In this document: positions 10,743 to 48,146 of the stretch, in pieces
Position numbering within the stretch: the first letter of the stretch is position 1
How the letters are laid out: every line of letters starts with the position of its first letter
DNA from: Escherichia virus TH42
Sequence record: MT446413.1
DNA length: 64,000 nt
Direction: 5' to 3' (one strand)
The notes under the pieces: model-generated
What the model was told of the DNA's origin: nothing
Database searches by the model: none
The model's input: the letters and a program-made list of their open reading frames with translations, nothing else
Made by a program: the position numbers and the translations under genes

Positions 10743-10952
10743 TTAATCAATCAAACTAAACGACTTCCAGCTACGCGTAATTGCTACCCGTTCGCCATCA
10801 AAGAGAACACTTACAGAGATTAGCTTACCGCGACAACTGGATACCGTGGTAATACGTCCGGTTAGTGCCTTACCTTTATTCAGATAGTGATAGCGGACAC
10901 GACGCCCTAGTAGTCGAGTAGCTTTCTTCTCTAATGTGCTTAAGCTGGTCAT
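10743..10952 (-). CDS. hypothetical protein (69 aa)
   Basis: Track ORF on block strand. Confidence 0.45.
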   Translation of the reverse strand: MTSLSTLEKKATRLLGRRVRYHYLNKGKALTGRITTVSSCRGKLISVSVLFDGERVAITRSWKSFSLID

Positions 10953-11173
10953 TAAACAACCTCTTTATATTGGAGTGATCTTACACGACGATACATTACA
11001 GAAGATGCATTAATCGCCGCTTGTTTTCTTTCGTGCTCATGCTGGTTTTTGTGTATCTTATCCATCTCGGCATCATTACGACGACGCTGTAAGATTCTGC
11101 TACACTTGCGATGGTTATTGTTAGCACGTGCTTTCTTACAGATAGGGCACAAGTGAGATTGAGTTAAGATCAT
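10952..11173 (-). CDS. small zinc-finger-like protein (73 aa)
   Basis: CPIC...H..C pattern near N-terminus; basic. Confidence 0.45.
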   Translation of the reverse strand: MILTQSHLCPICKKARANNNHRKCSRILQRRRNDAEMDKIHKNQHEHERKQAAINASSVMYRRVRSLQYKEVV

Positions 11174-11394
11174 TTTCGCAGTCCTAACTTACGAAGGAAT
11201 CGGCCTAGCTTAGTTTCCTGCGTGATAGTGTAAGTAACAGAGTTTTCAATTAATGCTTGTTCTTGAATCGGTGACGGATACCATTCACCGGTAAGGATGC
11301 ATTTACACTCGATTCCATACTTATCGGTTTTACGATAGGTCATGTTGTTTAAGATATTACGATACATCTTAACTTCTGTTTTCAATTTTGGCAT
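11170..11394 (-). CDS. hypothetical protein (74 aa)
   Basis: Track ORF; 4-nt overlap with downstream gene. Confidence 0.45.
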   Translation of the reverse strand: MPKLKTEVKMYRNILNNMTYRKTDKYGIECKCILTGEWYPSPIQEQALIENSVTYTITQETKLGRFLRKLGLRK

Positions 11395-11449
11395 GGTGTT
11401 TATCTCTTTTTAGTTTCTTTGATTAGTACACTGAATCAATGCACTAGTA

Positions 11450-11482
11450 AAAGAAAAGGCGCTACCCTTTCGAATAGCGCCT
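11450..11482 (-). terminator. rho-independent terminator
   Basis: Perfect 8-bp stem AGGCGCTA/TAGCGCCT with A-tract on plus strand; directly downstream of gene 11503..12405. Confidence 0.6.
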
Positions 11483-11502
11483 TATATGTTCTTTATTGTA
11501 GG

Positions 11503-12405
11503 TTATGCAGCTTGTTGGCGTGCTGCCATGATCTCGGCAGCTTTACGCAATACTTCTTCCTCGTCTGCCGCCGCTTTCTCGTTCGCTTTGACAGTAGAAG
11601 CTGTAGAGATACGACCGCGAAGGTTAGACAATTTTTCAGTCATTTCGTTGATCGCTTTTTCCATTTCATCAGCGTATGAGTCCAGCGATTCAAGCTCTTT
11701 AACTGAGGCATTGATCAGATAGTCATCGCTGATAGATACAGTTGATGCGGTTACTTTCTTAAGGAGTGAATCAAAAGTTTTCTTAACTTTGCCTACTTCT
11801 TCACTCAATGCGATAGTGTTATCAGAAGATGCACCGTTGCGCTCGTCTGCCAACAAGGCCGCTTCAATACGGATGGCAGCTAAACGATCAGTTAGAGCGT
11901 AAATATCCTGATTAAAGTTTTCGTTAACCTTCTGGTTAATCTGATTTGCTACCGGAACGTTGTCGTTGCAGCCTTTATAGAAAGCTGGATTATCGACCTG
12001 TACATCTTCACCTTTAGCAAAGCGTTCGAAGGAGTTAGACCAGCGGGCACGGTTTTGCTCCATTTTGGTTTTAACCTGTTCCGGTTTAGCATCTTCTTTC
12101 GCTTTCGCTTCACCTTCCAGATTAATCCATTTCTTTTTACCGTTCGCCCCGTCGCTGTTGTACTTGATAGGAGTGAGGAAAGAGATTGCAACCGCAATCA
12201 CATCTAAATCACGGTAACGCTCAGTCAGTAAGAAATCTACCGCCCCCTGCAATACATCCAGCTTCTTACCGTTAGCACGGAAGTGCTGCAAATGACCTAA
12301 CAGGAAGTTAGAAACATCTTGCTTAATCGCTGCGTTGTTGCTACGGATATTGTTAGCCAGTGCGTTAAAGCCAGATTCGTTAACCAGATTGAAAGATTTA
12401 GCCAT
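11503..12405 (-). CDS. hypothetical protein (300 aa)
   Basis: Long track ORF with own terminator; first gene downstream of the ORF-poor region. Confidence 0.6.
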   Translation of the reverse strand: MAKSFNLVNESGFNALANNIRSNNAAIKQDVSNFLLGHLQHFRANGKKLDVLQGAVDFLLTERYRDLDVIAVAISFLTPIKYNSDGANGKKKWINLEGEAKAKEDAKPEQVKTKMEQNRARWSNSFERFAKGEDVQVDNPAFYKGCNDNVPVANQINQKVNENFNQDIYALTDRLAAIRIEAALLADERNGASSDNTIALSEEVGKVKKTFDSLLKKVTASTVSISDDYLINASVKELESLDSYADEMEKAINEMTEKLSNLRGRISTASTVKANEKAAADEEEVLRKAAEIMAARQQAA

Positions 12406-13224
12406 GATAATTTACCTTTTAATTAAAACGCTCTATGCGCCGCTCTCTATGAGCTATTCAAGTCACAATGACTTAACACTAATCACTAACTATTAGTAAC
12501 CAGTGGTAAATCAGGCGGACTTATCAGGAGTTAACCTTGCCGCCTAACTTTCCATGATGTTTCATCCGGTGGATTCTATTAATCGCTATAAACGAAGCCG
12601 ATTTGCCAGCGATGATTAATCATCATAATAAGGCAGTGTGCCCATCTCTAATTAGCTAACGTTCTAGCCGATGGTAATGCTGTTTACTTTACGTTCGCTC
12701 CGCGATACCCTTTTATATTAACTCTCTAAGCCGACTTATCACCTACTACGGGAAAGTATATGGCAAAGAGTCACTAACCGCCTGATAGATTGGCGTTTGA
12801 TTATCTCTCTCGCGATTTACTACAGTGCATTGTTATGTACTCACATCTTATTGACGTGTTTCAAACAACTTGCTTAGTAAACACTCACACTTAAACCTTA
12901 TTATTAAATAGCAATTTGCTACTCTTTAACCTTCACACCGTCGCTCGCTATTGAGCGTTAATTCGTCGGGATTGACTACCCTGATTAACGTCTATTACCG
13001 TAGCACTTTACTAGCACCGCCGCCGCTACCCTTTAACCGTAGGTGATTAGCTTAAGCCTTGCATGTACTCGATAACTTCGTTTATCAGTGGCATCGTTTC
13101 CAGTAAGGGAATGTAAAGCGGTTTTCTCTGATATTTTAGAGCGCCTTACATCGTTTTATCTGGCATAACTTGCAATGGTTATTATTGCTCGTTATGTTCA
13201 ACCGATATAGGAAGAAGTTTAAAT

Positions 13225-14393
13225 TGTTAAAGAGCGGTAAATCTATCGAAGTGCTTTCTCACTTCCCGCCACCGTTCGCCGTGGTTTCGCGTTTCACTAG
13301 TTGCCTAGTGAGTGCTCATTATGAATCATCCCGTTTAGCGTGTCAACCACTTTTTTTAAATCTTTTTCTCGTCTATTCTTTCGAATGACCAGTTAATCAC
13401 ACATTGGATTAACAAGATTGTAAGCGGTTGCGCTTAACTTTCTGATTCATATTTTTAAAGAGCGGTGCGGTTTTCATGACTCCGCAAACATTTTCATTTT
13501 GAAGTCTACTTATGCACTAACGGGGCGACTACACCCGACCTACACGCTGCACTATGTGCCACCTTTCCCGCGCTACGTCACTTAGGGGAACTGTTTAGCA
13601 AGTTGCCTTGCTTAGTGAACATTCTAACAGAGTGTTTCACCTTGTCAACTCTTTTTATCATCTTCTTTTATTCTATTCCCTTATCTCGCGTGAATCTTTG
13701 CGAAAGGGCAAGATGATAATTTGTTAAAGAGCGTTAAATCTGTCGCCGTCTTCCTCGGCTTCGTGCCTTGAGTGTTCCCACTCCTTCCAGTTTAAGCCTT
13801 TTTACATGATGCTAATCATCTATCTGGAAGTGTTCTGTACTGCTGAGATCACATCTTATCATAGTGATTCGACGTGTCAACAACTATTTTTCGATTAATG
13901 CATCTTGATAAACTAGCGACCATTGAGGCCGCTAACCTACCTTAGTTCATACGTTTAAAGGTTAAATCTTTATCCGTACTTACCAGCGATAACACCGCGA
14001 TAGATTTGCCATTGTCGGCATCAGCTATCATTTCTTTCGCTTGCTGTAACGTGCTACCGACTATTCTCATAATCATGTTAGTAACGTTAATGCTAGTGCA
14101 AGTGATTTGCGTGTCTTTGCTTGAGAAGGTGTAAATGTTCATGGATAAATCCTCATTATGGCATGGTTGGGAGTTTATCAAGATACACTAATCGAATTTT
14201 TAAAGAGCTAGTAAACAAAGTTTGCCTTGAGAGAATCTAGTACACTGTTAAACGCTGATTTCTTTGAAGTATCGACCTTATAGGCCGCCAAATCCACGCA
14301 TGAAAGAGGAATCGACTAGGATAATCAACTAAGTGCCTTATAGTAATGACGCTTGTTAGCACCACTCCTAAGCAAACCTTGTTTTTAAAGAGC
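13225..14393 (+). repeat. array of six same-orientation TTTAAAGAGC-type motifs in an ORF-poor region
   Basis: Copies at 13225-13248, 13454-13465, 13721-13745, 13954-13976, 14197-14208, 14384-14393; two are near-identical 24-25-mers (TTGTTAAAGAGCGGTAAATCTATCG vs TTGTTAAAGAGCGTTAAATCTGTCG). Confidence 0.6.
13942..14181 (-). CDS. hypothetical protein (79 aa), uncertain
   Basis: Only minus-strand track ORF inside the ORF-poor region. Confidence 0.3.
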   Translation of the reverse strand: MINSQPCHNEDLSMNIYTFSSKDTQITCTSINVTNMIMRIVGSTLQQAKEMIADADNGKSIAVLSLVSTDKDLTFKRMN

Positions 14394-14642
14394 AAGGCTA
14401 AAAGTCTAGCCTATCAGGCTTGTTACCGACTGCATAACTAAACCTGAGATTCAAATATAAATCTATCAAGCAAAGAAAGCAATACCTTTTTCTAAAATAA
14501 TTTCACTTTCTTTTAGGTATAGATGAGCACGCGCACGAATAACATCAGGGGAGGAAGAAAACAAGCCTTATAATCGAAAATAAGGCATACAGGAGGCGTT
14601 CTAACGAGCTAAACAGGGGCAAGATGTGCAATCACCTTAGAA

Positions 14643-14670
14643 ATGAAAAAAGCGCCTCAAAAGGGCGCTT
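14643..14670 (-). terminator. rho-independent terminator
   Basis: AGCGCC-loop-GGCGCT with A-tract on plus strand, just downstream of gene 14690..15031. Confidence 0.55.
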
Positions 14671-14689
14671 AGGAAGTCTTACGGGTTGG

Positions 14690-15031
14690 TTACGGATTGG
14701 TGCAAGTGCCGTTACCGGATGATATTTCGTTCATCGACTCATCGAACAACGTCATACTAGACCGCATCATGTGATCAATAGTAATTTGTTTGCCTGTAGC
14801 TTCGTTAACAAGCATCGCATATTTGCTATCAACAACCTTGTTGTCGTAGTCATTCAGGTCAATCAATACTACCTTGCTGGACTTCTTGCCAGTGTCGTAA
14901 TTTTCCATAAGGTAGGTACATTGCAGGCCATCGAGATTAGCCTCATTGAATACGGCAGCATAAGACACGGAAGAAACAGCGAACAAGGCAGCACATACAG
15001 CTAATTTAATTTTCATAATCCAATCCTCCAA
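14690..15031 (-). CDS. putative secreted protein (113 aa)
   Basis: N-terminal signal-peptide-like MKIKLAVCAALFAVSSVSYAA. Confidence 0.5.
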   Translation of the reverse strand: MEDWIMKIKLAVCAALFAVSSVSYAAVFNEANLDGLQCTYLMENYDTGKKSSKVVLIDLNDYDNKVVDSKYAMLVNEATGKQITIDHMMRSSMTLFDESMNEISSGNGTCTNP

Positions 15032-15143
15032 TACGATTGGGGCAATCCTTAAAAAGAACGTGCAACATAAGAAATCATGTCATAGGTAAATAACATGATA
15101 CAGAAAGCAATCAGGCAATGCAAAAAGTATTTATGAATCACCA

Positions 15144-15392
15144 TTAACGATCCTCGACGGTTAACAGTTCTTCCAGTGATAGACCGGATTTAACCAGCAA
15201 ATCACGATATTCGTTAGCATCCATCGGATCAAGGCCGGACAACCGGGCAATAGTCATGCGTGCATGTGCTGAAGACAAGGAAGCCAAAGCACGGATAGGA
15301 ATCAGTACAAGCCCATATTTACCGCTGATAACCAAATCACCATGCTGGATGCACATATGGGAGTTTATTACGGTTGCAAATGATTCGTTCAC
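15144..15392 (-). CDS. hypothetical protein (82 aa)
   Basis: Track ORF on block strand. Confidence 0.45.
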   Translation of the reverse strand: MNESFATVINSHMCIQHGDLVISGKYGLVLIPIRALASLSSAHARMTIARLSGLDPMDANEYRDLLVKSGLSLEELLTVEDR

Positions 15393-16285
15393 TGGATAGC
15401 CTCACAATTAGCAAAGTTAATAAAGGTTGTATAAACTGCTACACCGTCATTGTAAGCAGTGGTAGCGAGTACAGTTTCACTAACATCACCATAGCTAACG
15501 AGATTAGTCACGAACTGTAATTTCTCTTTCTCAACCTTCTGATATAGAGAGTATGTAACCATGTCATGATCACTATCAGCACGCTTTAAATTAATAACCG
15601 ACTGAATGCCTGATTTCTCACTTAACGGGGTAAGAGTGACACGCACATCTTTTACGGTTACAGAGTTAAAATGCACCTTCCAGAATGAATCATTACCATC
15701 ACTGCCAACGTCACGGCAAGCCATATCAGGAGCATTCTTAAACGTGCTAACAAAGGATTGAAGACCTGTAGAAAGAGAGTCTTTTGCCTGCACATTGGTA
15801 GCGATAGCACTAACACTGATAGCTGCAACCAGCGCATAACTTGCAAGGTTGACAGACTTCATAATCTTACTTGCAATAGAAGGCTTACTATCTTTCTTCT
15901 TCTTGTTCTGAACAGCTTCAACCATAGCAGACAAGCGGGATAATACTGCGTTAACATCGCGGCAAGATTCAGGCCAATCATTCTGAGTCCAACTATCTAA
16001 ATTAGCCTGAATGTAACAGTTGATAGCATCTTGCATATCTGTAAAACCATTCTCTTTCATTGACTGCTCATCTTCACACTGTAAGGCGTTCGCAGCGGAA
16101 TCTATGATAAGACAAGCCAGAATGACAGAGTTTTTAAAGCTGGTGCGAGCTTGCTGGTTATCCATCCATTGAGAAGGCACACCAACGGAAAGACCTAACA
16201 GAGAAAGTACATCATTTGCCTGATTCAAGTATTTAATTGCTAACTTTGACATTTCATTAATCCTTTCGGTTGATGTGAACTGCAA
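15389..16285 (-). CDS. hypothetical protein (298 aa)
   Basis: Track ORF; first gene of the minus block next to the divergent region. Confidence 0.55.
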   Translation of the reverse strand: MQFTSTERINEMSKLAIKYLNQANDVLSLLGLSVGVPSQWMDNQQARTSFKNSVILACLIIDSAANALQCEDEQSMKENGFTDMQDAINCYIQANLDSWTQNDWPESCRDVNAVLSRLSAMVEAVQNKKKKDSKPSIASKIMKSVNLASYALVAAISVSAIATNVQAKDSLSTGLQSFVSTFKNAPDMACRDVGSDGNDSFWKVHFNSVTVKDVRVTLTPLSEKSGIQSVINLKRADSDHDMVTYSLYQKVEKEKLQFVTNLVSYGDVSETVLATTAYNDGVAVYTTFINFANCEAIQ

Positions 16286-37614: not shown

Positions 37615-38649
37615 ATGGCATATGGAATATGGACAAGCCCTGTTGGTCCGGGTCCGGCGGCACCTGCTGATATTTACATCGATAGTGGTAGCACGTTTCC
37701 TCAACTCAAGAATAGAGTTAGCGGTAACTTTGCATTTAGTGGAAACATTTGTGACCTCCCTATAAACGGGTGGGATGGAAGTGGTCAAATAGTTATTGTC
37801 CCAACAGGCTCTGTGGTATGGGAAAGATACATACCGCCTAATGTGACCTCGGACGTATACTGGATAGACAACATCTCAGTTATTAATAACTCTACTTTTC
37901 GAGTTACTATGGATTATAATGTTAATGGGTGGGTATTTGATATGGCTTTTAATGTGTATCAGATATGGCCTAGAGCTAATAGAAACTACGGAATTACTTT
38001 TTCTAACACAGCTGATTACTTCTCTATTTCTGACTCTGGCACTGTTGGTCAGTGTATCTGGGCTTGGGAAGGTGACATAAACGGCTCTCTTCAGATACCA
38101 GATATTGGAGGTTTTGATATGAGCCGGGCAACTGTTTATGCAAACTGGAGTCACGGAGGGGCGGGGTTGTTGTATAACCCATCTAACAGGGTTGTTTATG
38201 TGTACCAAAACAGGTCTCACGATAACAGTAACACAAACCAAACAGGATCTATTGGTGGTGTTAGGATTGCTGTTTTCTGCGATGGTTCTGGGGTACCAAC
38301 CCACAACGGTGGCCTAAACATCTTTTCCCCAAATGGGTCTCAGTGCGTATTCTCTACCTATAGAACCCCTTTTAGTGTTGAAGGGTTTATGCCTATGAGT
38401 GGAGGTAATACATCTCTGGCCTATCCAATGATACCACTGTCTTATGGGGCTGGGGCTATACGAGGAAGTGCTAGTGGTTGGTACTTTCAACACACAAGAT
38501 CTCATATGATGAATGGATCTTCTTTTGGGACAGGGTATGGAAGAATGATATACTCTTGGTCAAATCAGTATGATCTCGGTGGTGGGGGTGCTCTAGGATT
38601 AAGTATTCCGGTATTAGACGCCAAGAAGATTTTTAGAAGCATACAATAA
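37615..38649 (+). CDS. virion structural protein (344 aa)
   Basis: Start overlaps preceding stop; module position. Confidence 0.5.
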   Translation: MAYGIWTSPVGPGPAAPADIYIDSGSTFPQLKNRVSGNFAFSGNICDLPINGWDGSGQIVIVPTGSVVWERYIPPNVTSDVYWIDNISVINNSTFRVTMDYNVNGWVFDMAFNVYQIWPRANRNYGITFSNTADYFSISDSGTVGQCIWAWEGDINGSLQIPDIGGFDMSRATVYANWSHGGAGLLYNPSNRVVYVYQNRSHDNSNTNQTGSIGGVRIAVFCDGSGVPTHNGGLNIFSPNGSQCVFSTYRTPFSVEGFMPMSGGNTSLAYPMIPLSYGAGAIRGSASGWYFQHTRSHMMNGSSFGTGYGRMIYSWSNQYDLGGGGALGLSIPVLDAKKIFRSIQ

Positions 38650-38658: not shown

Positions 38659-39453
38659 ATGGATAGGATTTTAGGAGTTTCAGAACTAGATCCACTGGTT
38701 CAACAAGCTGCTAAGAAGTATGGTATTCCTGCTGCTCTTGTTCATGCGGTCATTCAGAGGGAGTCTAGTGGTAAGCCCTCTGCCGCTTCAGGAACAGGGC
38801 CAGTAGGATTGATGCAGATTAGTAAAGGTTTGGCTAAAGATTATGGTTACAAATTAGAAGATCGTCTAGACCCAGCTAAGAATATCGACATGGGTGCTAG
38901 ATATATCAGGGACAACCTAAAAGCGTTTAATGGTGATGTAAGAAAGGCAATGGTAGGTTATTCAGAAGGGACTGGTGGAGCAAAACAAATGTTCGCTGGT
39001 AAGAGAGGGTTTACACCTCAAGCTCTCGATTCTATGAATAATAAAAACTTCCTCCCTTTCTATACAGCCAATGATGCTGCTGGTCAGGTAGCTAATCCGG
39101 TTGGGGCTTTACAGTCAGCACAGCCAGTGAACCAGTTCTCTCCTGAATTGGTTACTAAAGAAGGTGCTGCTAATTCCCCTACTCAAGCTGAGATTGCTGC
39201 TGCTAAGACAGGTGCTCTAGGTGGTTCTCCTGCTGAGTTCTATTCCGATGCTGTAGCAGAGACTGGGGAAGATCAGAAACCACAACAGAACTTCGGTAAT
39301 GCTGCACTAGCTGCTGCTGCGATGTTAGCAGGGAAGGCTCCTAAGTCTCAAACAGTTCAGAGAGCACATGCACCAACTCAAGCAGGTTCTCAATACAGCC
39401 CACAGACACAAGCCGTTCTTAGACGTTTGGCAAGTGTTGGTGTTATTAAATAA
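38659..39453 (+). CDS. lytic transglycosylase domain protein (putative internal virion protein)
   Basis: QRESSGKPSAASGTGPVGLMQI matches the SLT catalytic motif (E-S....A.S..GA.GLMQ). Confidence 0.7.
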   Translation: MDRILGVSELDPLVQQAAKKYGIPAALVHAVIQRESSGKPSAASGTGPVGLMQISKGLAKDYGYKLEDRLDPAKNIDMGARYIRDNLKAFNGDVRKAMVGYSEGTGGAKQMFAGKRGFTPQALDSMNNKNFLPFYTANDAAGQVANPVGALQSAQPVNQFSPELVTKEGAANSPTQAEIAAAKTGALGGSPAEFYSDAVAETGEDQKPQQNFGNAALAAAAMLAGKAPKSQTVQRAHAPTQAGSQYSPQTQAVLRRLASVGVIK

Positions 39454-39465
39454 TAAGGAGGACGT

Positions 39466-40515
39466 ATGTCTTTATTCGGGTCTGCTTCTAAGACTAAAAC
39501 TACAGTGGCTCCATCCTCTCAGGTTGATGCTCTGTTAAAACAGATTGTGGCTAATGCTCAGAATATGAACAGCAATGATGCTGGATTTATTTCTCAGCAA
39601 CTAGCTGGCCTTAACCCTAACCAACAAGCTGCTCTATCTAACTTAGCTAACTCTTCCACCTTGAATCAACTGAGTAATATGTACACTCCTCGGACACAAC
39701 AAGGTCTGGATCAGATGAACACTTTGGCTCAGAGATATCAAGACTTGGCTAATAGTTCAATCAGTGCTAGTGATGTTAACAAGTTCAGTTCTGGTCTAAA
39801 CAATTCTGCACTGGCTCAGGCAACAGGAAAGGCTGCATCTAACGTATCTCTTGGTAATGGTTCTGATTCAGGATCTCTTCGTAGGGCTGCTGCTCAGGGT
39901 GCTGCTTTGAATTCTGCTAATACCAACCTGTCTCGTACTATCTCTGGTAAGAACTTAGGTGTTGACGCTTTAAGATCTAACAGTTCCTTCCAGCAAGGCC
40001 TTCTGAACGCACAAACAGGGTTGGCTGGACAAAACCTTAACCTCGGCTCTCAAGGCACTCAGGCAGCTCAACAGGCTATCCAGAATCAACTTACTGCTGG
40101 TAACTTACAACAGCAGCAAGATCAGACTCAAGCTGACCTTAATTGGCAGAATGCTATTGGTAGTCAACAGTACGGATGGAATCAACTCAACAACCAATTA
40201 AATGTATTAAACTCAGTAAGCCCTATGGCTGGTTATACAATTACTAATAAAGGAGCCTCTCCTAACACATCCCAGCAAATTCTTGGTGCTGGAGTGACTG
40301 GTCTAGGTATTGCTGGTAGATTGGGTGCTTTCACTCCTAGTCAACAAACTCAGAATGCTTGGAACTCTTATAATGCTTCGGGTGGTCAATCTGGTATGGC
40401 TGGTCCTATGATCGGTGGGTCTAACCTATCCAATCAGAGTAATCAGAATAACTGGTTGTCTACAGCTGGGAGTAATATTTTGGGTGGTGTTCTAGGTGCC
40501 TTCGGGGCAAACTAA
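39466..40515 (+). CDS. Q/N/S/G-rich low-complexity virion protein (349 aa)
   Basis: Strong RBS; extreme low complexity; module position. Confidence 0.5.
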   Translation: MSLFGSASKTKTTVAPSSQVDALLKQIVANAQNMNSNDAGFISQQLAGLNPNQQAALSNLANSSTLNQLSNMYTPRTQQGLDQMNTLAQRYQDLANSSISASDVNKFSSGLNNSALAQATGKAASNVSLGNGSDSGSLRRAAAQGAALNSANTNLSRTISGKNLGVDALRSNSSFQQGLLNAQTGLAGQNLNLGSQGTQAAQQAIQNQLTAGNLQQQQDQTQADLNWQNAIGSQQYGWNQLNNQLNVLNSVSPMAGYTITNKGASPNTSQQILGAGVTGLGIAGRLGAFTPSQQTQNAWNSYNASGGQSGMAGPMIGGSNLSNQSNQNNWLSTAGSNILGGVLGAFGAN

Positions 40516-40526
40516 GGAGGTAAATA

Positions 40527-41498
40527 ATGGCAGGTTTATTCGGTGGAGGGGGTAGCTCTTCTACTTCCAAAATGACAAGACCTGAATATATTCAATCCTA
40601 TATTGACCAACTGGTTAATCAGGTGAATAACACAAGTTCAGGCGATTATGTTTATAGAGATAATGTAGGTTTCAATCAGAACCAAACTGAGGCTCTGAAT
40701 AACCTTTCTCAATCAGGAGCACTTGGTGCTCTGTCTTCTCAATATATGGATGCTGCTCAATCTGGTCTGGGATATCTCGACCAAGCCAATTCAGGCTATA
40801 ACAACCTATCTAACTCTGGTCAAATTACTGGTGAACAGATTGGTGCCTTGGCTGGTCAGCTCTATGACGATGAAGCTGTTCAGGCTGCTATTACAGCTAA
40901 CAATGAACAGACACAACAGGATTTGGCTCGTAATGCTCTACCTCAGTTGGCTCAGCAATATGCTGGACAGCAAGGTTCAGGTGCTAGAATGGCTAAATCT
41001 TTTGCTCAAGGTGATGCTCTTAATCAGATGCAGAACACAGCAACCAATATTACCAACAGTGCTTATGATTCAGCTCTTAATCAAGCTCAAAGCATTCTGT
41101 CAGGTAATAGACAATCTCAAGCTTCTGCTCTAAGTGGACTCTCTGGAATTGGTAGTTCTTTATCTAATTTAGGAACCCAAGCAGGTCAACTATCCCAGCA
41201 GCAGATGCAGAATCAGTGGGCAGCAGGTTTGCAGCAACAGCAACAGCAACAAGCTGGTCTGGATAATGCTTATACAAACGCTCAGAATGCAGCCAATTGG
41301 GGCTGGCAAGACATTAACAACCAACTCGGTGCAGCTGGTGTTCTCAACGGTGCTTTAGGTACTACAACTACTAATAAGGTTTCAGGTGGTGGGAGTGGTT
41401 TCTTAGGTGGTGCTATGAGTGGCGCAGCAGCAGGCTCTTCCTTCGGACCTTGGGGTGCATTAGCAGGTGGGGTTATCGGTGGGTTGGCTAGTTCTTAA
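40527..41498 (+). CDS. Q/N/S/G-rich low-complexity virion protein (323 aa)
   Basis: Strong RBS; compositionally similar to preceding gene; Gly-rich C-terminus. Confidence 0.5.
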   Translation: MAGLFGGGGSSSTSKMTRPEYIQSYIDQLVNQVNNTSSGDYVYRDNVGFNQNQTEALNNLSQSGALGALSSQYMDAAQSGLGYLDQANSGYNNLSNSGQITGEQIGALAGQLYDDEAVQAAITANNEQTQQDLARNALPQLAQQYAGQQGSGARMAKSFAQGDALNQMQNTATNITNSAYDSALNQAQSILSGNRQSQASALSGLSGIGSSLSNLGTQAGQLSQQQMQNQWAAGLQQQQQQQAGLDNAYTNAQNAANWGWQDINNQLGAAGVLNGALGTTTTNKVSGGGSGFLGGAMSGAAAGSSFGPWGALAGGVIGGLASS

Positions 41499-41512: not shown

Positions 41513-43144
41513 ATGCAACAAACATCTTACGCGTATCTTCGTAGTCAAGACCCGCGAAATCAGATTTATGGTGATCGTCAGAGAGGGGTTACGGCCTCTC
41601 CTTACATGTCCAGACCTGCTGGTCCAGCAGCTGACTTATCTATGTATCAGCGTCCAGCTCTTCCTGCTGTCTTAGGAGCTACAGTTGAACAAGCACAGGC
41701 TGACCAAGAAGCTATGATGAATCCGGGATTCAAGCAACGTCTTTATGAACAGCAGGGTATTTCCACTCCTACTAGTTTGGCTGGTATTGATGCTGGCATT
41801 AATCCGGGTGATGAAGGCTCTATGATGCCTGCTGATGTAGCTCCTGCTTCTAGCCCTCTTCCGGTTACAGCTCCTGCTAAACCAATTGAAGAGTCGGATA
41901 AAGAGTTTGCCCCTGAACAAGTACAACAGGCACAAGGTGTCATGAATACTATCGCTTCTGGTGTTCCTCAGGGTGAAGGTATGAGTGGTGCTACTCGTGC
42001 TGCTGACCAAGAACGTGTGAATCAGGATATTCTTAAAGTTGCACAATCTAAGAACCCGGCAGATGCGTGGAAGACTATGCAGAAACAGCCTTTCTATCAA
42101 AACTCTAGTTTCTATACAGGATTGATGGGTGTGGGTCTTTCTATTATGTCTGGTAAATCTCCGATTGAAGCATTCCAGATTGGCTCTGGTATGGCATCTC
42201 AGGATGAAGCTAAACAACAATTAGAACTGAACCGTGATAACCTGATCGAACAAGGTTACTCTCAGGATTCTGTAGCTGCTGCTGTAGCTGCTGGTGACCC
42301 TTCTCTTCTGAAGATGCGTCAGATTAGTCCTCAAGAGAAGATGGCTCTAGCCGCTCAAGATGAAGCTCGTGCTAATCAAGAGTGGGATAGACGTCAACAG
42401 ATTCAAGAGAATTCGATGCGGGAACGTGCTGCTGAAACCCGTCGTGCTGCTGAACAACGTGCTGATGCTCAGTTTGAGAAGCAGAAAGAGTTGATTGGTT
42501 ATCGTGATCAAGTTAAGGCAGACCGTGCAGAACAAGCTGCTCAAAGTTTTAACTTTAACCCGAAAGAAGTTCGTCTTGCTCAGAACACTGCTGAAGGTAC
42601 GGTTGCTAAGCAATGGGCAGAGAAGGCAGGACTGTTTAACCAGTCTCATAAAGACTTGGATTTGGCAGACAAAGCAGTTAAGGATGGTGATTATCAGACT
42701 GCTCGTTCTGCGTACATGCAGGCTATCATGAACTCCGCGAGAGCTGAGATTGGTGCTAACCGTTCTCTGCAAGCTGATGACTTGTCACACTTCGCAGAAG
42801 ACCCATCCATTCTTGTTAAGGTAGGTAACACTTGGTCTCTTAAAGCTGGTTATCGTCCATCCGATGCCGCTCTTTCCTATGCCCGTAAGCAAGCAACTGT
42901 TGGTGCTTCTTCTGCTGAGAAAGGTGTTAAGGATTCTAAGAAAGCAACTATTGAAGCTTATGTTGGTTCTGGTATGGACAAGAAACGTGCAACTGCTCTT
43001 GTTAACCGAGCTATTCCTTCTGCTGGTTTCTATGACCCTCTCGGTGTATTCGAAGCAGAGTCTGAAGCAGCTGTTGGTGGTTCAGCAACCAATCCTAAAC
43101 TTAATGGTGCTTTGTCTTCTAACACTGATTGGATGACTCAGTAA
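41513..43144 (+). CDS. virion protein (543 aa)
   Basis: Track ORF with RBS, module position. Confidence 0.5.
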   Translation: MQQTSYAYLRSQDPRNQIYGDRQRGVTASPYMSRPAGPAADLSMYQRPALPAVLGATVEQAQADQEAMMNPGFKQRLYEQQGISTPTSLAGIDAGINPGDEGSMMPADVAPASSPLPVTAPAKPIEESDKEFAPEQVQQAQGVMNTIASGVPQGEGMSGATRAADQERVNQDILKVAQSKNPADAWKTMQKQPFYQNSSFYTGLMGVGLSIMSGKSPIEAFQIGSGMASQDEAKQQLELNRDNLIEQGYSQDSVAAAVAAGDPSLLKMRQISPQEKMALAAQDEARANQEWDRRQQIQENSMRERAAETRRAAEQRADAQFEKQKELIGYRDQVKADRAEQAAQSFNFNPKEVRLAQNTAEGTVAKQWAEKAGLFNQSHKDLDLADKAVKDGDYQTARSAYMQAIMNSARAEIGANRSLQADDLSHFAEDPSILVKVGNTWSLKAGYRPSDAALSYARKQATVGASSAEKGVKDSKKATIEAYVGSGMDKKRATALVNRAIPSAGFYDPLGVFEAESEAAVGGSATNPKLNGALSSNTDWMTQ

Positions 43145-43209: not shown

Positions 43210-46200
43210 ATGGCTAACTTAAAACCGTGGGAAGAAGCTTCTAAAAGCCCTGCGTATTTGAATGCCTCCCCTGAGCAACAGTCTCAGATGCGAGAACAGT
43301 ATAAAGCAGCGGGTGGAACGATTCCTGAGGCTGCTCCAGCTCCTAAACAAGAAGAGCAACCGGGGTTGGTTGGTGATTTTGCCCAAGGTGTGTCCAACGC
43401 TATTCAATCAGGTGGTGCAAACATTGCAGCTAGTGCTGCTAGAGGTATTGGTGGATTAGTTGAGATTGGAGAAAATCTAGCTGGTACACAGACAAGTTAT
43501 GGTAAGCGTATTCAAGACAACTCTAAAAACTTACTAGAAGAACGTCTTTCTCAAATCGAAGATGGTGTAGGTAAATCTGTAGGTCAGTATGCTGGCGTTG
43601 CCGCTGATATCGGTCTTACGGTCGCTAACCCAGCTGTAGCTGCTGCTGTTATTGCAGCTCGTGAAACAGGTAGGGCTTATGCGGACCAAACTCCAGAAGA
43701 GGGTGAAGAGAAGTCTGTTCTTGATGCTGGTCTAGTTGGTGGTGCTAACTTTGCAGCTCAGAAGATTCTTCCGGGGATGACAGGAACTGCTTCTACTACT
43801 CTAGGTCGTGTTGGTCAGAGTGTAGCATCTAACGCAGTGGCTGGTGCTAAAGGTGGTGCTCTTGTAGGTGCTGCTGAAGCACAGAACAAATATGGTGATG
43901 ACACTACTCTTGCTAACATTATTGAAGGTGCTGTAGAAGAAGGTGCGATGGGTGCTGCTTACGGTGGGGCTATCGGTGGGGTTCATGGATTGATAAGTCG
44001 TCCTAGTCCTCAAGTCTTTGACCGTACTCCAGAACACGTTAAGACTGACATTGCCGCTGAAGATGAAGCTATTCGCTCAGCTAAAAATGCAGACGAACTA
44101 AGAGAGGCTTACTCTAAAGCTGATAACGCTAACACAGCTTCCGCTCTTAACCTCCTCGATGAGAACGGTTTCCGTGTTACTGATGCTGTGGCTATGGACT
44201 CCCCTGCTGCTCAGCGTATCCTTAATACTGATCAAAGTCGTGCTGAGAAGGCTGCTACTATTCTGGAAGATCGTTCTAATGTTCCGGGTTTAAATCCTCT
44301 TGCTGCTCCTAATAAAAAGCAAGGTAAAGCTAACGCAGACAACGAACATAACCAGAAACAAGCTGTGGCAATGAAAGATGCAATGGCTGATTATACAAAA
44401 GACAACACTAAATCTCTGTCTGATGTTCTGGATAATCTTGATCGTGAATTAACAGCTGCTCGTGCCAGTGGTGATTTTACTGGTAGTGCTATGGACATTA
44501 AGAATCGTACCCAAGCAGATCGTGATTTCATTGATGCTTATAAAACTTTCTATAACGAAGCTAATCGATTCAAAGCTCGTGATGGTGAAGACTTTAATAA
44601 CTTCATAGAGAAAGCTACAGAGCTTCAGAAACTGGCTGATAATGTATCTCCAGAAATGAAAACTGCTATTGGTGGTTTGAAGAAACTTAAAGGAATGCCT
44701 GAAGGTTTCAACCCAATCCAAGATGCTTTCACTCTGAATAATACAGCTAAGTTAATGAGTAATCAAGACCGTGGTTGGACTTCTCTGACTGCTGATGGTT
44801 TTAAAGAAGCTGCTCCTCCAGTTCTGATTAAGAATCCTCTTGGTGCTGCTAAGCATGTTCTTAACCGTTTCCGTTCTGACCGTGCTCGCTCTCAACGCGA
44901 AAGCCAGCAGGCTGCTAACAGTGAAGCTATTCGTTCTCTTGCTCGTAGTGATATGGAAGTAACTCGTGCTCGTGCTCAGGCTGATGAAGCCCGTGCTGCG
45001 ATGGAGAAAGAACCTGAAGTTGATGACATTAAATTTAAGACTCAAAATGACACGGAAATCGAACCGGTTCGGGAGCCTTCTGCTACTACTGTGACGGAAG
45101 AAATTTCCTCTCCAGAAACCTCTCCTTTAACTGCTCGTGATTTGGTCGCACAGAGACGTGCTTTGAAGGAAGCTGAAGCTAGACGTCAAGAAGCCGAAGC
45201 TAATAAGGTTCAGGAAGAACCAACTCCAGAGCCAGTTCCACAAGAACCAGTTACTACCGCAAGGGATTTAGTTGCCCAGCGTCGTGCTGTTGCAGAAGCT
45301 CGTAAACGTCAAGAAGCAGAAGAGGCTAGCAAGGCTGCTGAGAGCGTTCCTGAGGAGCCTACCGTTCAAGCCGAGCCATTACCTACCCGTGCTCCTAAAG
45401 CTCCTGAGATTGAGCCTGAGCCTGTTAAACCAGCTACTGGAATAGAACGTCTAGCTGCTATGTCAAGTGCTGCCCGTCAAGCTACTAAAGATCGTGCAGA
45501 TCGCTTTGCTCGTTCCCTGTATACGGCAGGTGCTAAGGCTAAAGCCACAGCGGAGAATTTCCTTTCTTATAAAGGTGACCCGAAAGAGTTGATGCGTCGT
45601 ATCCGTCAGGAAGACCAAGCTAACAACGCTGAACGTCATGCTGAGATGGCTCGTAACCAGCTTGCTTCTCAACAGGGTATTGCTGCTGCTAAGTCACAAC
45701 GTGTTCGTTCTTCGTTTGCTGATTGGGTTAAGGAACGTGGTCTACCTTCTGATATTGCTACCAAGGCATTACGTGCTGAGGAGAAAGGTATTGGTGGGAA
45801 CGTGACTAGTCTGGATTCACTGAAGCGTAGGTCTGAACGTCTGTATCAGAAACAGCGCGATGATGAATTTAACAAGATGTATGAAGAAGCTCTTGCAGAG
45901 AATAAGAAGCTTGATAAAGCTGATGCTCCTAAACTGGTTGACCAGAAGAAAGAGTTACACAGCGAAATCAATTTACTTCTTGATGCAGAGCCATTACGTC
46001 CAGCTCAAAAAGATGCTATGCGTAAGTTGATGGAAGACTTTGTAGATGGGAAGTTTAAAGCTTCAGAGAAGGCTGGAAGGGAAGATGCTTTGGAAGTGGG
46101 ACAGATGAAGGATATATGGGATGGATTCATTAACACATATAACCGTGAAGTTAACATGTTCAACAAAGCTAATAAGAACTCTCAGTACGAAGCAGCAGCT

Positions 46201-47628
46201 AAACATTTGCAAGCACGTCAAGAACGTCTTGAGACGCTCCGTAACAGAGCTAAAGCTCGTAGTGATGCCAAGGCAGCAATAGAGACAGAAAGACAGTCTC
46301 TCGAGGCTATAGCGGCTCAGAAATCGGAGATGGAGAACCTGTTGAAAGATTTACCAGAGTCGGTACGTGAGTCTCAGGAAGGTCGTACACTGAAACAGTT
46401 AGCAGCTCACCACGATAAGAACTCTCCTGTACCACCGGAGCGTTTCCGTAGTATTATCGAACGTATCCACAACGCAGAAAGTGATTACATTGACCGTAAG
46501 CGTCGTCTCACTGAAGCGGAAGAAGATGCTCGAGAAGCTAAGTGGAATAAGATGTATGAACAGGCGGAAGAGATGAACCGTAAATACGACATTGATTCCC
46601 GTGTACAACGTGACAAGAAGCTCAAAGAAGCTCAGGAAGCAGAGAACGATCGCATGGCAATACAACGCCAACGTGATGACATTCATAAGCGCCTGATGCG
46701 TTCTATGGAGGATAAAGGGATTCCTAAAGAAGATGCAGAAATCTTTGCAGGTTCTTATATGGATAACCGTTACTCTCTTCTGGAGAAACCTATGACTCCT
46801 ACTGAGCACCAGAATGCTCGTTCTCGTATTGAATCGGATATTTCAAAGTTTGCTAAGGATTTTGAGAAGATGACACCAATCGAGAAAGATATTGCTAAGG
46901 CAACTGGTGATATGGATGGGAAGGTAGAGGTGGATGCAGACACTTCGAAAGCTATCGAAGATGCGAAGAAGGTAGATTCTGAGTTGAAGAAACTTCAGGA
47001 TGAGGAGTTGGAAATGGAGAAAGTTCGTTCGGCATTGCCAGAAGATGAAAGATCTCAAGCCTCCTCTGATATACTGGAAAGCATTAAGAAGCAGGAAGAT
47101 GACTTTGCTAACAAAGCAGAGAAAGCTTTTATCGAAGGTAAAGACTTGCAGGAACTGGCTAGTGTAGCAGAGGTTCTAGATAGAGTTCATGGTGCTGACA
47201 AGGCTGGTAACAACCGTCGCTTTGTACGTGCATTACAAACTGCTGCGGAGAACAAGAAACAGTATGGGGATAATCCAGTGGCTTGGTTTAGTGCTGATGA
47301 CTATTCTGCTATTGCTAAACTTGGGGCTGCTTCAGCGGGTGGTAACAAATCTAGAGCACTGGAGAAAATCTTTGGTTCTACTGCTGAACAAGCTAAAGGG
47401 AAACTTTTAGGGCGGGATGATGTAGCGAAGATTAGACGTGTGATTGAAGAGAATCCTGATGTTAAGATCCCTTCTTACAAGACAACTACTCGACAAGAGT
47501 ATTTACAGTTCTTGGAGAAGTATAATGACGAGGGAGAGTTGAAAGTCAAACGTGGTTCTCTGTCTGACAAGTTGGAGAGAAGTAAGCGTCAAGCTAAACT
47601 CCGTGTTAGAGTTCGAGCTAAGGAGTAA
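43210..47628 (+). CDS. very large helical virion protein (1472 aa)
   Basis: Longest ORF in window; Gly/Ala-rich N-terminus then E/K/R/A-rich helical sequence; internal peptide repeat TARDLVAQRRA(L/V) twice. Confidence 0.6.
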   Translation: MANLKPWEEASKSPAYLNASPEQQSQMREQYKAAGGTIPEAAPAPKQEEQPGLVGDFAQGVSNAIQSGGANIAASAARGIGGLVEIGENLAGTQTSYGKRIQDNSKNLLEERLSQIEDGVGKSVGQYAGVAADIGLTVANPAVAAAVIAARETGRAYADQTPEEGEEKSVLDAGLVGGANFAAQKILPGMTGTASTTLGRVGQSVASNAVAGAKGGALVGAAEAQNKYGDDTTLANIIEGAVEEGAMGAAYGGAIGGVHGLISRPSPQVFDRTPEHVKTDIAAEDEAIRSAKNADELREAYSKADNANTASALNLLDENGFRVTDAVAMDSPAAQRILNTDQSRAEKAATILEDRSNVPGLNPLAAPNKKQGKANADNEHNQKQAVAMKDAMADYTKDNTKSLSDVLDNLDRELTAARASGDFTGSAMDIKNRTQADRDFIDAYKTFYNEANRFKARDGEDFNNFIEKATELQKLADNVSPEMKTAIGGLKKLKGMPEGFNPIQDAFTLNNTAKLMSNQDRGWTSLTADGFKEAAPPVLIKNPLGAAKHVLNRFRSDRARSQRESQQAANSEAIRSLARSDMEVTRARAQADEARAAMEKEPEVDDIKFKTQNDTEIEPVREPSATTVTEEISSPETSPLTARDLVAQRRALKEAEARRQEAEANKVQEEPTPEPVPQEPVTTARDLVAQRRAVAEARKRQEAEEASKAAESVPEEPTVQAEPLPTRAPKAPEIEPEPVKPATGIERLAAMSSAARQATKDRADRFARSLYTAGAKAKATAENFLSYKGDPKELMRRIRQEDQANNAERHAEMARNQLASQQGIAAAKSQRVRSSFADWVKERGLPSDIATKALRAEEKGIGGNVTSLDSLKRRSERLYQKQRDDEFNKMYEEALAENKKLDKADAPKLVDQKKELHSEINLLLDAEPLRPAQKDAMRKLMEDFVDGKFKASEKAGREDALEVGQMKDIWDGFINTYNREVNMFNKANKNSQYEAAAKHLQARQERLETLRNRAKARSDAKAAIETERQSLEAIAAQKSEMENLLKDLPESVRESQEGRTLKQLAAHHDKNSPVPPERFRSIIERIHNAESDYIDRKRRLTEAEEDAREAKWNKMYEQAEEMNRKYDIDSRVQRDKKLKEAQEAENDRMAIQRQRDDIHKRLMRSMEDKGIPKEDAEIFAGSYMDNRYSLLEKPMTPTEHQNARSRIESDISKFAKDFEKMTPIEKDIAKATGDMDGKVEVDADTSKAIEDAKKVDSELKKLQDEELEMEKVRSALPEDERSQASSDILESIKKQEDDFANKAEKAFIEGKDLQELASVAEVLDRVHGADKAGNNRRFVRALQTAAENKKQYGDNPVAWFSADDYSAIAKLGAASAGGNKSRALEKIFGSTAEQAKGKLLGRDDVAKIRRVIEENPDVKIPSYKTTTRQEYLQFLEKYNDEGELKVKRGSLSDKLERSKRQAKLRVRVRAKE

Positions 47629-47633
47629 ATGAG

Positions 47634-47672
47634 AAAAGCCCCCAACCTGAAAAGGAAGGGGGCTTCTTTATT
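47634..47672. terminator. bidirectional terminator between convergent blocks
   Basis: AGCCCCC...GGGGGCT stem flanked by A-tract upstream and T-tract downstream. Confidence 0.6.
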
Positions 47673-47786
47673 TCTAGATGTTAGAATCCATCGAATTCAT
47701 CATACATCCCAATTTTCTTCTTGATGAAGGAGGTCTGGACGTTCATCAAACACTCCCCCAATCTTCTTCTTCGATCATAAGACCTC

Positions 47787-48146
47787 CTAGATTAAATCAT
47801 AATACTTAATAATATCAGAGAGCTTAAACTCTCGAATGTCATTCTTGTCATTGTCCCAAGCGGTCATTATCCAACAAGGTTTGCCCCCATTATGATAACG
47901 GGAAGAAGCAACTGAGGTTCGTATAGGAACAACGGAGCGGTCTGCAATTTCACCTCTCCAATTACGATAGCTAAAGCGAAGAACTTGTTTCGTAGATACT
48001 TGATCATAGGTGTTTTCCTTGTTCATAGATTCAAAGACTTCTCTTTCTTCAGGAGTCTCTAGATTTTTTAAATTCTCGTCTTGCATCATTCTCTTCCTTA
48101 GTTTTAATCTTATGACAAGGCTCTTTACACAAGACTTGAAAGCCAT
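47787..48146 (-). CDS. hypothetical protein (start uncertain)
   Basis: Track ORF overlaps the 3' end of the HNH gene; likely starts at an internal Met (MMQDENL, about 48089). Confidence 0.4.
   Translation of the reverse strand: MAFKSCVKSLVIRLKLRKRMMQDENLKNLETPEEREVFESMNKENTYDQVSTKQVLRFSYRNWRGEIADRSVVPIRTSVASSRYHNGGKPCWIMTAWDNDKNDIREFKLSDIIKYYDLI

Follow-up and report, generated by a model that had tools for sequence, protein, structure and literature searches.

The window, a stretch of 64,000 nucleotides from Escherichia virus TH42 (MT446413.1), carries two consecutive open reading frames on the + strand, ORF A (39466..40515, 349 aa) and ORF B (40527..41498, 323 aa), as an earlier sequence-only reading had proposed. 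Both frames begin with ATG, and each is preceded at a distance of 5-6 nt by a strong Shine-Dalgarno sequence AAGGAGG, read from the sequence at 39455..39461 (+ strand) for ORF A and at 40514..40520 (+ strand) for ORF B, the latter overlapping the stop codon of ORF A. A lytic transglycosylase (SLT) frame (38659..39453, + strand) lies directly upstream of ORF A, as that reading had noted, but the 1472-aa frame that it had also named as a neighbor, here ORF D (43210..47628, + strand), is not adjacent, the 543-aa ORF C (41513..43144, + strand) being located between it and ORF B. The SLT frame matches Pfam SLT (E 4.9e-25) and phrog_12507 (E 1e-159), ORF C matches phrog_12130 and ORF D matches phrog_14629.

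The genome belongs to a Kuravirus-like E. coli podophage (Gordonclarkvirinae). The region shares 97.5% DNA identity with Escherichia phage Bas88, whose annotation names the two genes "DNA ejection protein (x2)" beside a transglycosylase, and a protein identical to ORF A is already present in NCBI. The pair is an ordinary, already annotated part of the virion module of this phage group and is of a known kind. The five frames match the cassette gp20-gp24 of phage SU10 gene for gene and in the same order, with identities of 83% (SLT frame and gp20), 79% (ORF A and gp21), 83% (ORF B and gp22), 68% (ORF C and gp23) and 78% (ORF D and gp24, over the part compared). The SLT frame is thus the ortholog of the first ejection gene, gp20, ORF A and ORF B are the direct orthologs of gp21 and gp22 with equal lengths, and ORF C and ORF D are the orthologs of the ejection proteins gp23 and gp24. 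The phage belongs to the branch of Bas88, TH34, TH43 and ECBP2 (97% and 88% DNA identity) and is not SU10 itself; otherwise nothing substantive separates the two.

The sequence-only reading had suggested ejected proteins and had named virion proteomics as the check, which has been carried out in the relative SU10: mass spectrometry of virions found both gp21 (11 peptides, 53% coverage) and gp22 (49% coverage) (PMC4281155). The ejection proteins of SU10 are gp20-gp24, and the loss of gp21 and gp22 from the genome-release intermediate documents ejection for the two orthologs; neither was resolved by cryo-EM or given an individual role (PMC9509320). The homolog in phage Privateer is a virion protein verified by mass spectrometry. 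ORF A and ORF B are very probably ejection proteins.

Both proteins match the family phrog_4287, "DNA ejection protein", in full length (E 1.3e-102 for ORF A, residues 2-349; E 9.4e-100 for ORF B, residues 3-311), so that the description "no obvious domain" holds for Pfam but not for PHROGs. The phrog_4287-type family comprises 590 clusters at 50% identity (E<=1e-3), mostly of 300-430 aa with full-length matches. The two proteins are mutual paralogs, with 30% identity (E 8e-9) and a profile-profile probability of 99.9%, and the pair goes back to an old tandem duplication of a gene for an internal ejection protein known from SU10-like E. coli phages. The cassette SLT-A-B-C-D is also kept in a relative with only ~43% identity, and the duplication is therefore counted as retained over deep divergence. 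Because both copies are kept side by side across this divergence, they are probably non-redundant; they may also co-assemble.

Further members of phrog_4287 (E 2e-83) are found in the Grimontviridae C3 podophages, namely gp20 of Salmonella phage 7-11, gp18 of Proteus phage Privateer and the protein of Cronobacter phage GAP52. These proteins have a length of ~410 aa, occur in one copy and, of the two window proteins, are nearer to ORF B: the ORF B profile gives the homologs of 7-11 and Privateer 161-168 bits, the ORF A profile 63-72 bits. ORF B is for this reason called the ancestral-like, gp22-type paralog and ORF A the more diverged, gp21-type paralog. No second, hidden paralog was found in 7-11, Privateer or LUZ24 by profile search with ORF A and ORF B. 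The single-copy proteins carry an additional C-terminal domain of ~90 aa just under the threshold for Peptidase_S74 (PF13884; 18.8-20.5 bits versus a cut-off of 22), a domain that a Pfam search did not find in ORF A or ORF B, and in 7-11 the SLT gene is not adjacent to the ejection protein gene. The paralogy of ORF A and ORF B had been missed in the first reading of the sequence.

The residues Q, N, S, G and A account for 62% of ORF A and 63% of ORF B, the two highest values among the 35 window frames with 150 aa or more (next highest, 45%), which bears out the dominance of these residues as originally described. D, E, K and R together contribute 7-8%, and Cys is absent from both proteins. Low-entropy windows of 12 residues cover 16% of the residues of ORF A and 39% of those of ORF B, and the longest run is Q7; the proteins show compositional bias, not simple repeats. 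The Gly-rich termini that had been described are present at both C-termini and at the N-terminus of ORF B (MAGLFGGGGSSS), the N-terminus of ORF A (MSLFGSAS) being only weakly so. In the family alignments, which span identities of 40-93% for ORF A and 31-89% for ORF B, 24 and 20 columns, respectively, are invariant and a further 33 and 36 nearly invariant, the invariant positions of both families including W, Y, N and G. Helical hydrophobic periodicity of the alignments is marginal for ORF B (57/2000 shuffles) and absent for ORF A (330/2000).

AlphaFold2 (AF2) monomer models of the two proteins are of low confidence (mean pLDDT 56-58, pTM 0.31-0.36). They predict an all-alpha-helical body for residues 18-254 of ORF A (39517..40227, + strand), with helices at residues 18-34, 51-61, 64-96, 101-112, 115-125 and 136-254 (pLDDT ~53-77 there), and for residues 20-273 of ORF B (40584..41345, + strand), with eight helices and pLDDT 71-87 for residues 90-195. 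The most conserved block of ORF A, NWQNAIGxQQxGWNQLNNQLNVLNSVSPMAGYT, lies within the predicted body, and the Gly-rich tails of both proteins are unstructured in the models. The proteins do not fall into the disordered or prion-like Q/N-rich class, since helices are predicted over ~70-80% of each chain and conservation is position-specific. The position-specific conservation speaks against disordered filler, and the low-confidence helical bodies point the same way. The description of flexible proteins with no obvious domain was thus only half right: the family to which the proteins belong is conserved, with W, Y, N and G at invariant positions, predicted helical bodies and a glycine-zipper tail.

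A fold search against the PDB gave no significant match, with nothing below E 0.1 for the ORF B model (pLDDT 56), whose matches were generic helical hairpins such as those of colicin E3/E9. Among them was a chain of DNA-ejected T7, at a non-significant E of 2.1. At this pLDDT the ORF B model is too weak to infer a fold. The fold search against BFVD returned only uncharacterized phage proteins of similar size (TM ~0.25), which give no indication of function. Single-sequence searches of the PDB with ORF A and ORF B gave no match at E<=1, and the profile matches obtained there, to Cpl-7 CW_7 repeats (5i8l, E 0.0096), ribosomal S20 and TRAPPII, are weak and biologically unconnected and were taken as due to chance or composition.

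The only hydrophobic segments of ORF A and ORF B are glycine-zipper arms at the C-terminus, which are mild in hydrophobicity (Kyte-Doolittle ~1.0-1.4). In ORF A the first arm comprises residues 269-291 (QQILGAGVTGLGIAGRLGAF; 40270..40338, + strand), with a Kyte-Doolittle 15-residue mean of up to 1.4 and nearly invariant G/L positions, and the second comprises residues 330-348 (NILGGVLGAFGA; 40453..40509, + strand), with a mean of 1.21 and conserved in the family alignment; the two are split by a polar N/Q/S/G loop of ~40 aa. In ORF B the arms form a two-arm hairpin, residues 286-323 (SGGGSGFLGGAMSGAAAGSSFGPWGALAGGVIGGLASS; 41382..41495, + strand), which is the best-conserved part of the family, with invariant and near-invariant positions in the ORF B family alignment. 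This hairpin is a candidate outer-membrane insertion module.

The ejection protein gp7 of Salmonella phage P22 (PF25688, phrog_598) forms a dodecameric channel outside the cell and in the outer membrane. It resembles ORF A and ORF B, whose bodies are predicted to be helical, in being all-helical and of similar composition (58% QNSGA, 10% charged residues), in being encoded first in the small-medium-large order of the ejection cassette and in ending in a two-arm glycine-zipper hairpin, the motif S-S-x-(G)PWGA-x-x-GG-x-IG-x-L being common to gp7 and the ORF B tail. It differs in being ~100 residues shorter and in being the product of one gene in two conformations, versus two genes here. The tail of the ORF B family aligns to that of the gp7 family over 30 columns (hhalign probability 74.5%, E 2.7e-5), and the ORF B tail reaches a Smith-Waterman score of 77 against gp7, versus 43.5 +/- 7.2 for composition-matched shuffles, 0 of 5000 of which reach this score; the ORF A tail is not significant in the same comparison (170 of 5000). 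A gp7 profile also matches the tails of two other family members (E 3.6e-7 and 4.9e-5). In P22 the corresponding gp7 segment is a V-shaped two-helix hairpin in the outer membrane, as seen by in situ cryo-EM (bioRxiv 10.64898/2026.09.03.749273). Searches with gp7 family profiles against ORF A and ORF B gave no match to PF25688 at E<=0.1 and none to phrog_598 at E<=10, and the family HMMs of ORF A and ORF B do not detect P22 gp7. Homology of the whole protein to gp7 is not supported, as only ~30 C-terminal residues align and common descent of the whole proteins is unproven; the resemblance of the ORF B tail could reflect convergence on a glycine-zipper membrane hairpin.

LUZ24 gp53 (phrog_7477) is a homolog of ORF B (hhalign probability 97%, E 8.4e-11; hmmsearch E 1.3e-7) and matches phrog_4287 at E 2e-10; the direct match of ORF B to phrog_7477 is weak (E 0.085), and the ORF A family profile does not detect gp53. 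The size-matched counterpart of gp53 at the same gene position in phage Pa223 is gp56 (313 aa), for which a gp14-like outer-membrane channel has been proposed, a role that is only predicted, from an AlphaFold3 nonamer and membrane-helix prediction (bioRxiv 10.1101/2025.06.11.659172). The Bruynoghevirus proteins gp56/gp53 resemble ORF B in being virion proteins by mass spectrometry, in having a Gly-rich hydrophobic C-terminus and in lying upstream of genes for proteins of ~500 aa and >1000 aa, as in the window; unlike ORF A and ORF B, they occur in single copy, with no tandem paralog and no separate SLT gene alongside. By size and gene order, ORF C is a candidate periplasmic-tunnel subunit and ORF D a candidate inner-membrane or cytoplasmic subunit. 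No BLAST similarity was found between ORF C and LUZ24 gp51 or between ORF D and LUZ24 gp50, so that these two assignments follow order and size only.

T7 gp14 (phrog_805), which forms the pore of the T7 ejectosome in the outer membrane, is an analogous small helical protein preceding the tunnel and large proteins. It differs in its length of 196 aa, in having 20% charged residues and in being without a glycine-zipper C-terminal hairpin, and in T7 the SLT domain is part of the large protein, whereas here SLT is a separate gene. Homology of gp14 to ORF A and ORF B was rejected (hhalign probability 0.1%, no PHROGs cross-match).

To our knowledge, the conduit by which podophage DNA crosses the Gram-negative envelope has been described structurally in a handful of phages (T7, P22, DEV). 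The Kuraviruses, coliphages of interest for therapy, have a nozzle that is unusual in being extendable, and their five ejection proteins have so far been listed without individual roles. Taken as a whole, the explanation of ORF A and ORF B as paired internal ejection proteins forming the outer-membrane-proximal section of the channel appears probable; on the specific point of the outer-membrane section of the DNA channel, the comparisons lean slightly in favor. The head would contain the two proteins along with the SLT enzyme (gp20), gp23 and gp24, and they would exit at genome release, as seen for the orthologs. Each would consist of a helical body of ~250 residues with much Gln/Asn and little charge, followed by the two short hydrophobic glycine-zipper arms, and the small, polar, Cys-free composition would allow the chains to traverse the tail channel of 25-31 Angstrom, either unfolded or in the form of single helices. 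Once released, they may fold again as a multi-helix barrel that caps the extended nozzle at its tip and is stabilized by Gln/Asn hydrogen-bond networks, with the C-terminal hairpins inserted into the outer membrane. The pair would thus take the part of P22 gp7, T7 gp14 and Pa223 gp56 as the outer-membrane-proximal section of a trans-envelope channel, while the SLT protein would cut peptidoglycan and the 543-aa and 1472-aa proteins would carry the channel inward.

An alternative is that the two ejection proteins build a soluble tube, as an extracellular extension of the nozzle or as part of the periplasmic tunnel, and that the 543-aa or the 1472-aa protein inserts into the membrane. The helical bodies (~250 aa) exceed those of P22 gp7 and T7 gp14 in length, and long helical hairpins could span beyond the membrane; gp7 itself also forms an extracellular channel, P22 gp20 gives most of the outer-membrane lumen, and the hydrophobicity of the tails is modest. 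A soluble tube is nevertheless unlikely, as it leaves aside that the C-terminal arms are the sole hydrophobic segments of both proteins, that the ORF B arms match, in the alignment, the part of gp7 observed within the outer membrane and that the homolog Pa223 gp56 has predicted membrane helices at the same C-terminal positions. Less probable still is that the proteins serve inside the capsid as mostly disordered filler or core material, for example by organizing or spacing the DNA, stabilizing the portal barrel or tuning the pressure, and are expelled only passively. The strong compositional bias, the low AF2 confidence and the lack of resolved density in the SU10 head would suit such a role, and E proteins of P22 stabilize the portal barrel and occupy capsid volume (discussed in the Pa223 preprint), but the very low charge is a poor fit to DNA binding, invariant W, Y, N and G are spread position-specifically across hundreds of residues, a conserved hydrophobic hairpin would serve no evident purpose within a capsid, and a role in the channel has been proposed for homologs. 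That the proteins are fibre-like material or an appendage on the outside of the virion, the other possibility raised in the sequence-only reading, is highly improbable, despite the annotation of the ECBP2 ortholog of ORF A as "hemagglutinin", the sub-threshold Peptidase_S74 domain (a fibre intramolecular chaperone) at the C-terminus of the single-copy 7-11-like relatives and some BFVD neighbors with a chaperone auto-processing domain, because ORF A and ORF B are without the S74 domain, gp11, 12, 13, 16, 17 and 18 explain all of the density for tail, needle and fibres in the cryo-EM of SU10, and gp21 and gp22 vanish from particles at genome release while the fibres remain.

Within the preferred reading of a paired outer-membrane-proximal channel section, it is doubtful that ORF A and ORF B form an obligate hetero-oligomer. 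In the P22 gp7 dodecamer, neighboring subunits alternate between the conformations gp7-o and gp7-i to fit the hexameric tail hub. By analogy, each of the two proteins could fill one P22-like position in an obligate 6+6 hetero-dodecamer on the extended nozzle, an arrangement regarded as unlikely. The extended nozzle itself alternates six nozzle proteins and six short fibres, and in such an assembly ORF B would give the compact membrane hairpin and ORF A the hairpin split by a polar loop. If correct, the hetero-dodecamer would represent the resolution of quasi-equivalence through gene duplication in a phage DNA-delivery channel.

Beyond the published work on SU10, the analysis identifies gp21 and gp22 as an anciently retained paralog pair and places this pair in a large family, of 590 or more clusters at 50% identity, to which the proposed outer-membrane channel of Bruynoghevirus also belongs. 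The tail hairpin of gp22 resembles the membrane hairpin of P22 gp7, and ORF A has a split version of it. The outcome is a set of concrete role assignments, put forward at the strengths given above, and a sequence motif for the annotation of such proteins in other podophages. The shorter motif GP[WYF]G is present in only 22 of 139 family representatives.

ORF A (39466-40515, + strand, 349 aa) and ORF B (40527-41498, + strand, 323 aa) both start with ATG, preceded at 5-6 nt by the Shine-Dalgarno sequence AAGGAGG, and lie in a co-directional block with an intergenic spacing of 11-14 nt. Gln, Asn, Ser, Gly and Ala account for 62% and 63% of their residues, respectively, the two highest values when the window's 35 ORFs of 150 aa or more are ranked (the third is 45%), which confirms exactly the sequence-only reading of two ORFs dominated by these residues at 39466-41498. 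Charged residues make up just 7-8%, and a composition count found no cysteine in either protein. The bias is compositional rather than repetitive; low-entropy 12-residue windows hold 16% (ORF A) and 39% (ORF B) of the residues, and the longest single-residue run is Q7. That reading also placed the pair next to a transglycosylase gene and the 1472-aa gene and described Gly-rich termini. The transglycosylase gene (SLT, 38659-39453, +) does lie immediately upstream of ORF A, but the 543-aa ORF C (41513-43144, +) intervenes between ORF B and the 1472-aa ORF D (43210-47628, +), and the N-terminus of ORF A is not notably Gly-rich.

At the DNA level the region shares 97.0-97.5% identity with Escherichia phages Bas88, TH34 and TH43, 88% with ECBP2 and 76-80% with many phiEco32/SU10-like phages (Gordonclarkvirinae); NCBI already holds a protein identical to ORF A, on a 77-kb contig (P0053). 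SU10 gp17-gp24 agree one for one in order and size with the window genes, the orthologs being gp19 for a 344-aa ORF at 37615-38649 (+; 62% identity), gp20 for SLT (83%), gp21 for ORF A (79%), gp22 for ORF B (83%), gp23 for ORF C (68%) and gp24 for ORF D (78%). The 344-aa ORF, which has the tail needle gene on one side and the ejection cassette on the other, has matches to Pfam DUF6453 (E 3e-23) and to phrog_1265 'membrane protein'. In the available portions of the SU10 sources, tail density is attributed to proteins other than gp19, the ejection-protein list comprises gp20-24 only, and gp19 is not among the late-gene rows of the 2014 proteome table.

Virion proteomics of SU10, a close relative, detected both gp21 (35.9 kDa, 53% coverage, 11 peptides) and gp22 "DNA injection protein" (33.3 kDa, 49% coverage) (PMC4281155), which supports the earlier suggestion of ejected proteins by the very assay proposed for it. 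The structural study describes the orthologs as packaged in the head, where the density gives no resolved signal for them, and as leaving with the genome; it gives a tail channel width of 25-31 Angstrom and identifies the tail components as gp11 (adaptor), gp12 and gp13 (long fibres), gp16 (short fibres), gp17 (nozzle) and gp18 (needle) (PMC9509320). The reading as ejected proteins is correct, and ORFs A and B are a component of Kuravirus-like phages that is already annotated and has experimental support.

Full-length matches to phrog_4287 "DNA ejection protein" were obtained for both proteins (E 1e-102 for ORF A, 9e-100 for ORF B); a search for Pfam domains found none in either. By sequence they are paralogs, with 30% identity across 265 residues in BLASTP (E 8e-9) and a profile-profile probability of 99.9% (E 5e-33). 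In alignments of 30 A-type sequences (identity down to 40%) and 36 B-type sequences (down to 31%), invariant W, Y, N, G, P and L positions are dispersed along both chains, which are thus positionally constrained beyond mere bias. The family is large and chiefly metagenomic: when 1.84 billion cluster representatives were searched with a profile, 590 clusters passed E<=1e-3 and 111 passed E<=1e-10, mostly 300-430 aa long and aligned end to end. A weak match of the B-type profile (E 0.0096, 18.8 bits; window 40530-40890, ORF B residues about 2-122) to the CW_7 peptidoglycan-binding repeats of Cpl-7 lysozyme (PDB 5i8l) is probably due to chance or composition; if real, a muropeptide-binding N-terminus would fit an ejection protein adjoining the SLT gene.

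AlphaFold2 models built from these alignments, of low overall confidence (mean pLDDT 56-58, pTM 0.31-0.36), predict all-helical bodies at residues 18-254 of ORF A and 20-273 of ORF B, with pLDDT of 71-87 for ORF B residues 90-195 and about 70-77 in the best blocks of the ORF A body; the last 50-95 C-terminal residues are modeled as unstructured. Hydrophobic stretches are confined to C-terminal glycine-zipper segments. The two arms of ORF B (residues about 290-323, SGFLGGAMSGAAAG and ALAGGVIGGLASS) are contiguous, with an SSFGPWG turn between them, and those of ORF A (residues 269-291, QQILGAGVTGLGIAGRLGAF; residues 330-348, NILGGVLGAFGAN) are kept apart by a polar loop (N/Q/S/G) about 40 residues long. 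Conservation in the B-type alignment is highest in the C-terminal tail.

P22 gp7 resembles both proteins in composition (58% QNSGA), and its C-terminus (...IGGGASGAIAGAGLAKLIGSSTPWGAAIGGGIGLLGSLF) aligns to the ORF B tail with a Smith-Waterman score of 77 versus 43.5 +/- 7.2 for composition-matched shuffles (reached by 0/5000). Comparison of the B-type and gp7 family profiles by hhalign gave a probability of 74.5% (E 2.7e-5), and the gp7 profile matches the tails of two further family representatives. In situ cryo-EM shows the aligned gp7 segment as a V-shaped helix pair within the outer membrane, and gp7 itself as a dodecamer, its helical hairpins linked through Gln/Asn hydrogen-bond networks and its alternating outer and inner conformers docked on a hexameric hub (bioRxiv 10.64898/2026.09.03.749273). 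LUZ24 gp53 (Bruynoghevirus) is, by sequence comparison, homologous to ORF B (hhalign probability 97%, E 8e-11, 204 columns), with independent backing from its own match to phrog_4287 (E 2e-10). Its counterpart of equal length and gene position, Pa223 gp56, is verified in virions by MS and has been proposed to be an outer-membrane channel of the gp14 type; its membrane helices are predicted at 233-243, 278-291 and 296-311, and AlphaFold3 models it as a hollow nonamer (bioRxiv 10.1101/2025.06.11.659172). No match to PF25688 or phrog_598 was found for either ORF, the gp7 and A/B body regions gave no significant alignment, the ORF A tail was not significantly like gp7 in the shuffle test, and T7 gp14 showed no similarity to either protein; ORFs A and B are therefore not placed in the gp7 or gp14 families. 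They probably work like gp7/gp14. No similarity was found between ORF C and LUZ24 gp51 or between ORF D and LUZ24 gp50.

The Grimontviridae C3 podophages (7-11, Privateer, GAP52 and Aeromonas LAh phages) carry one homolog of about 410 aa, scoring 161-168 bits with the B profile versus 63-72 bits with the A profile, and neither profile detected a second copy; LUZ24 likewise has one copy, gp53 (313 aa), found by the B profile only. Since single-copy homologs favor the B profile, ORF B is the ancestral-like copy and ORF A the diverged one. An SU10-like element on an E. coli chromosomal contig has the full cassette (SLT, 291 aa; A, 334; B, 322; C, 498; D, 1113), with just 43% identity to ORF B and about 29-30% to ORFs C and D. 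Judged from these sequences the duplication is old, and the retention of both copies argues for non-redundant roles.

The element (GCA_023211535.1, contig DAHCAP010000002.1, 204317-225285 of 389554 bp; genes at locus 945-15875) lies mid-contig and also encodes an SU10_MCP capsid protein, an SU10_portal portal protein and a terminase; its complete ejection cassette is about 30-45% identical to that of the window. Large Enterobacter contigs also encode B-type proteins of this kind (P0039, P0042). These occurrences point to integrated and possibly temperate relatives of a phage group held to be strictly lytic, though the E. coli module may instead be an assembly chimera. The single-copy Grimontviridae homologs (7-11 gp20, L006 7947-9185; Privateer gp18, L007 7953-9182; P0044/P0045; P0229) have ~90 extra residues right after the glycine-zipper tail (...GGLFSDASLKKNV...), spanning the whole Peptidase_S74 profile at 18.8-20.5 bits, under the cut-off of 22. 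Peptidase_S74 is an intramolecular chaperone of trimeric fibres, and an ejection protein with an auto-cleaving trimerization chaperone would be unusual.

We propose that the small-residue, polar, low-charge, cysteine-free chains would thread the narrow tail channel either in an unfolded state or in the form of single helices and refold into a helical barrel at the nozzle tip, where their glycine-zipper hairpins would enter the outer membrane; SLT would open the peptidoglycan, and ORFs C and D would carry the channel inward. More speculatively, a single ring could alternate ORFs A and B, two genes fixing the two conformers of P22 gp7 and mirroring the alternation of nozzle protein and short fibre in the Kuravirus nozzle; an obligate hetero-dodecamer is nevertheless unlikely. 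What is added here is modest: the two genes are recognized as paralogs, their duplication is given a direction and an age, a link is drawn to a putative outer-membrane channel of Bruynoghevirus, and a membrane hairpin is found in common with P22 gp7. Together these points yield testable role assignments.

A soluble extracellular or periplasmic tube is a plausible alternative to the membrane-inserted channel, to which we give a small share of the probability. Passive disordered capsid filler is more doubtful still, since conservation is positional, charge is very low and the hydrophobic hairpin is conserved as well. An external fibre, the other suggestion of the sequence-only reading, has as its sole support the sub-threshold Peptidase_S74-like domain of distant single-copy relatives and an old "hemagglutinin" annotation, and is very improbable in view of the SU10 tail assignments and the loss of the orthologs upon genome release (PMC9509320); the SU10 virion proteomics (PMC4281155) lends it no support.

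ORF D contains a near-exact internal duplication (window about 45120-45320, residues about 638-705; TARDLVAQRRALKEAEARRQEAEA ... TARDLVAQRRAVAEARKRQEAEEA), its copies set apart by a Pro/Glu-rich linker. Right after ORF D, at about 47630-48050, the long ORFs flip from + strand virion genes to the - strand and the GC skew changes sign, with the cumulative skew maximum at 46-48 kb; terminators are annotated on both strands at the equivalent position of SU7.
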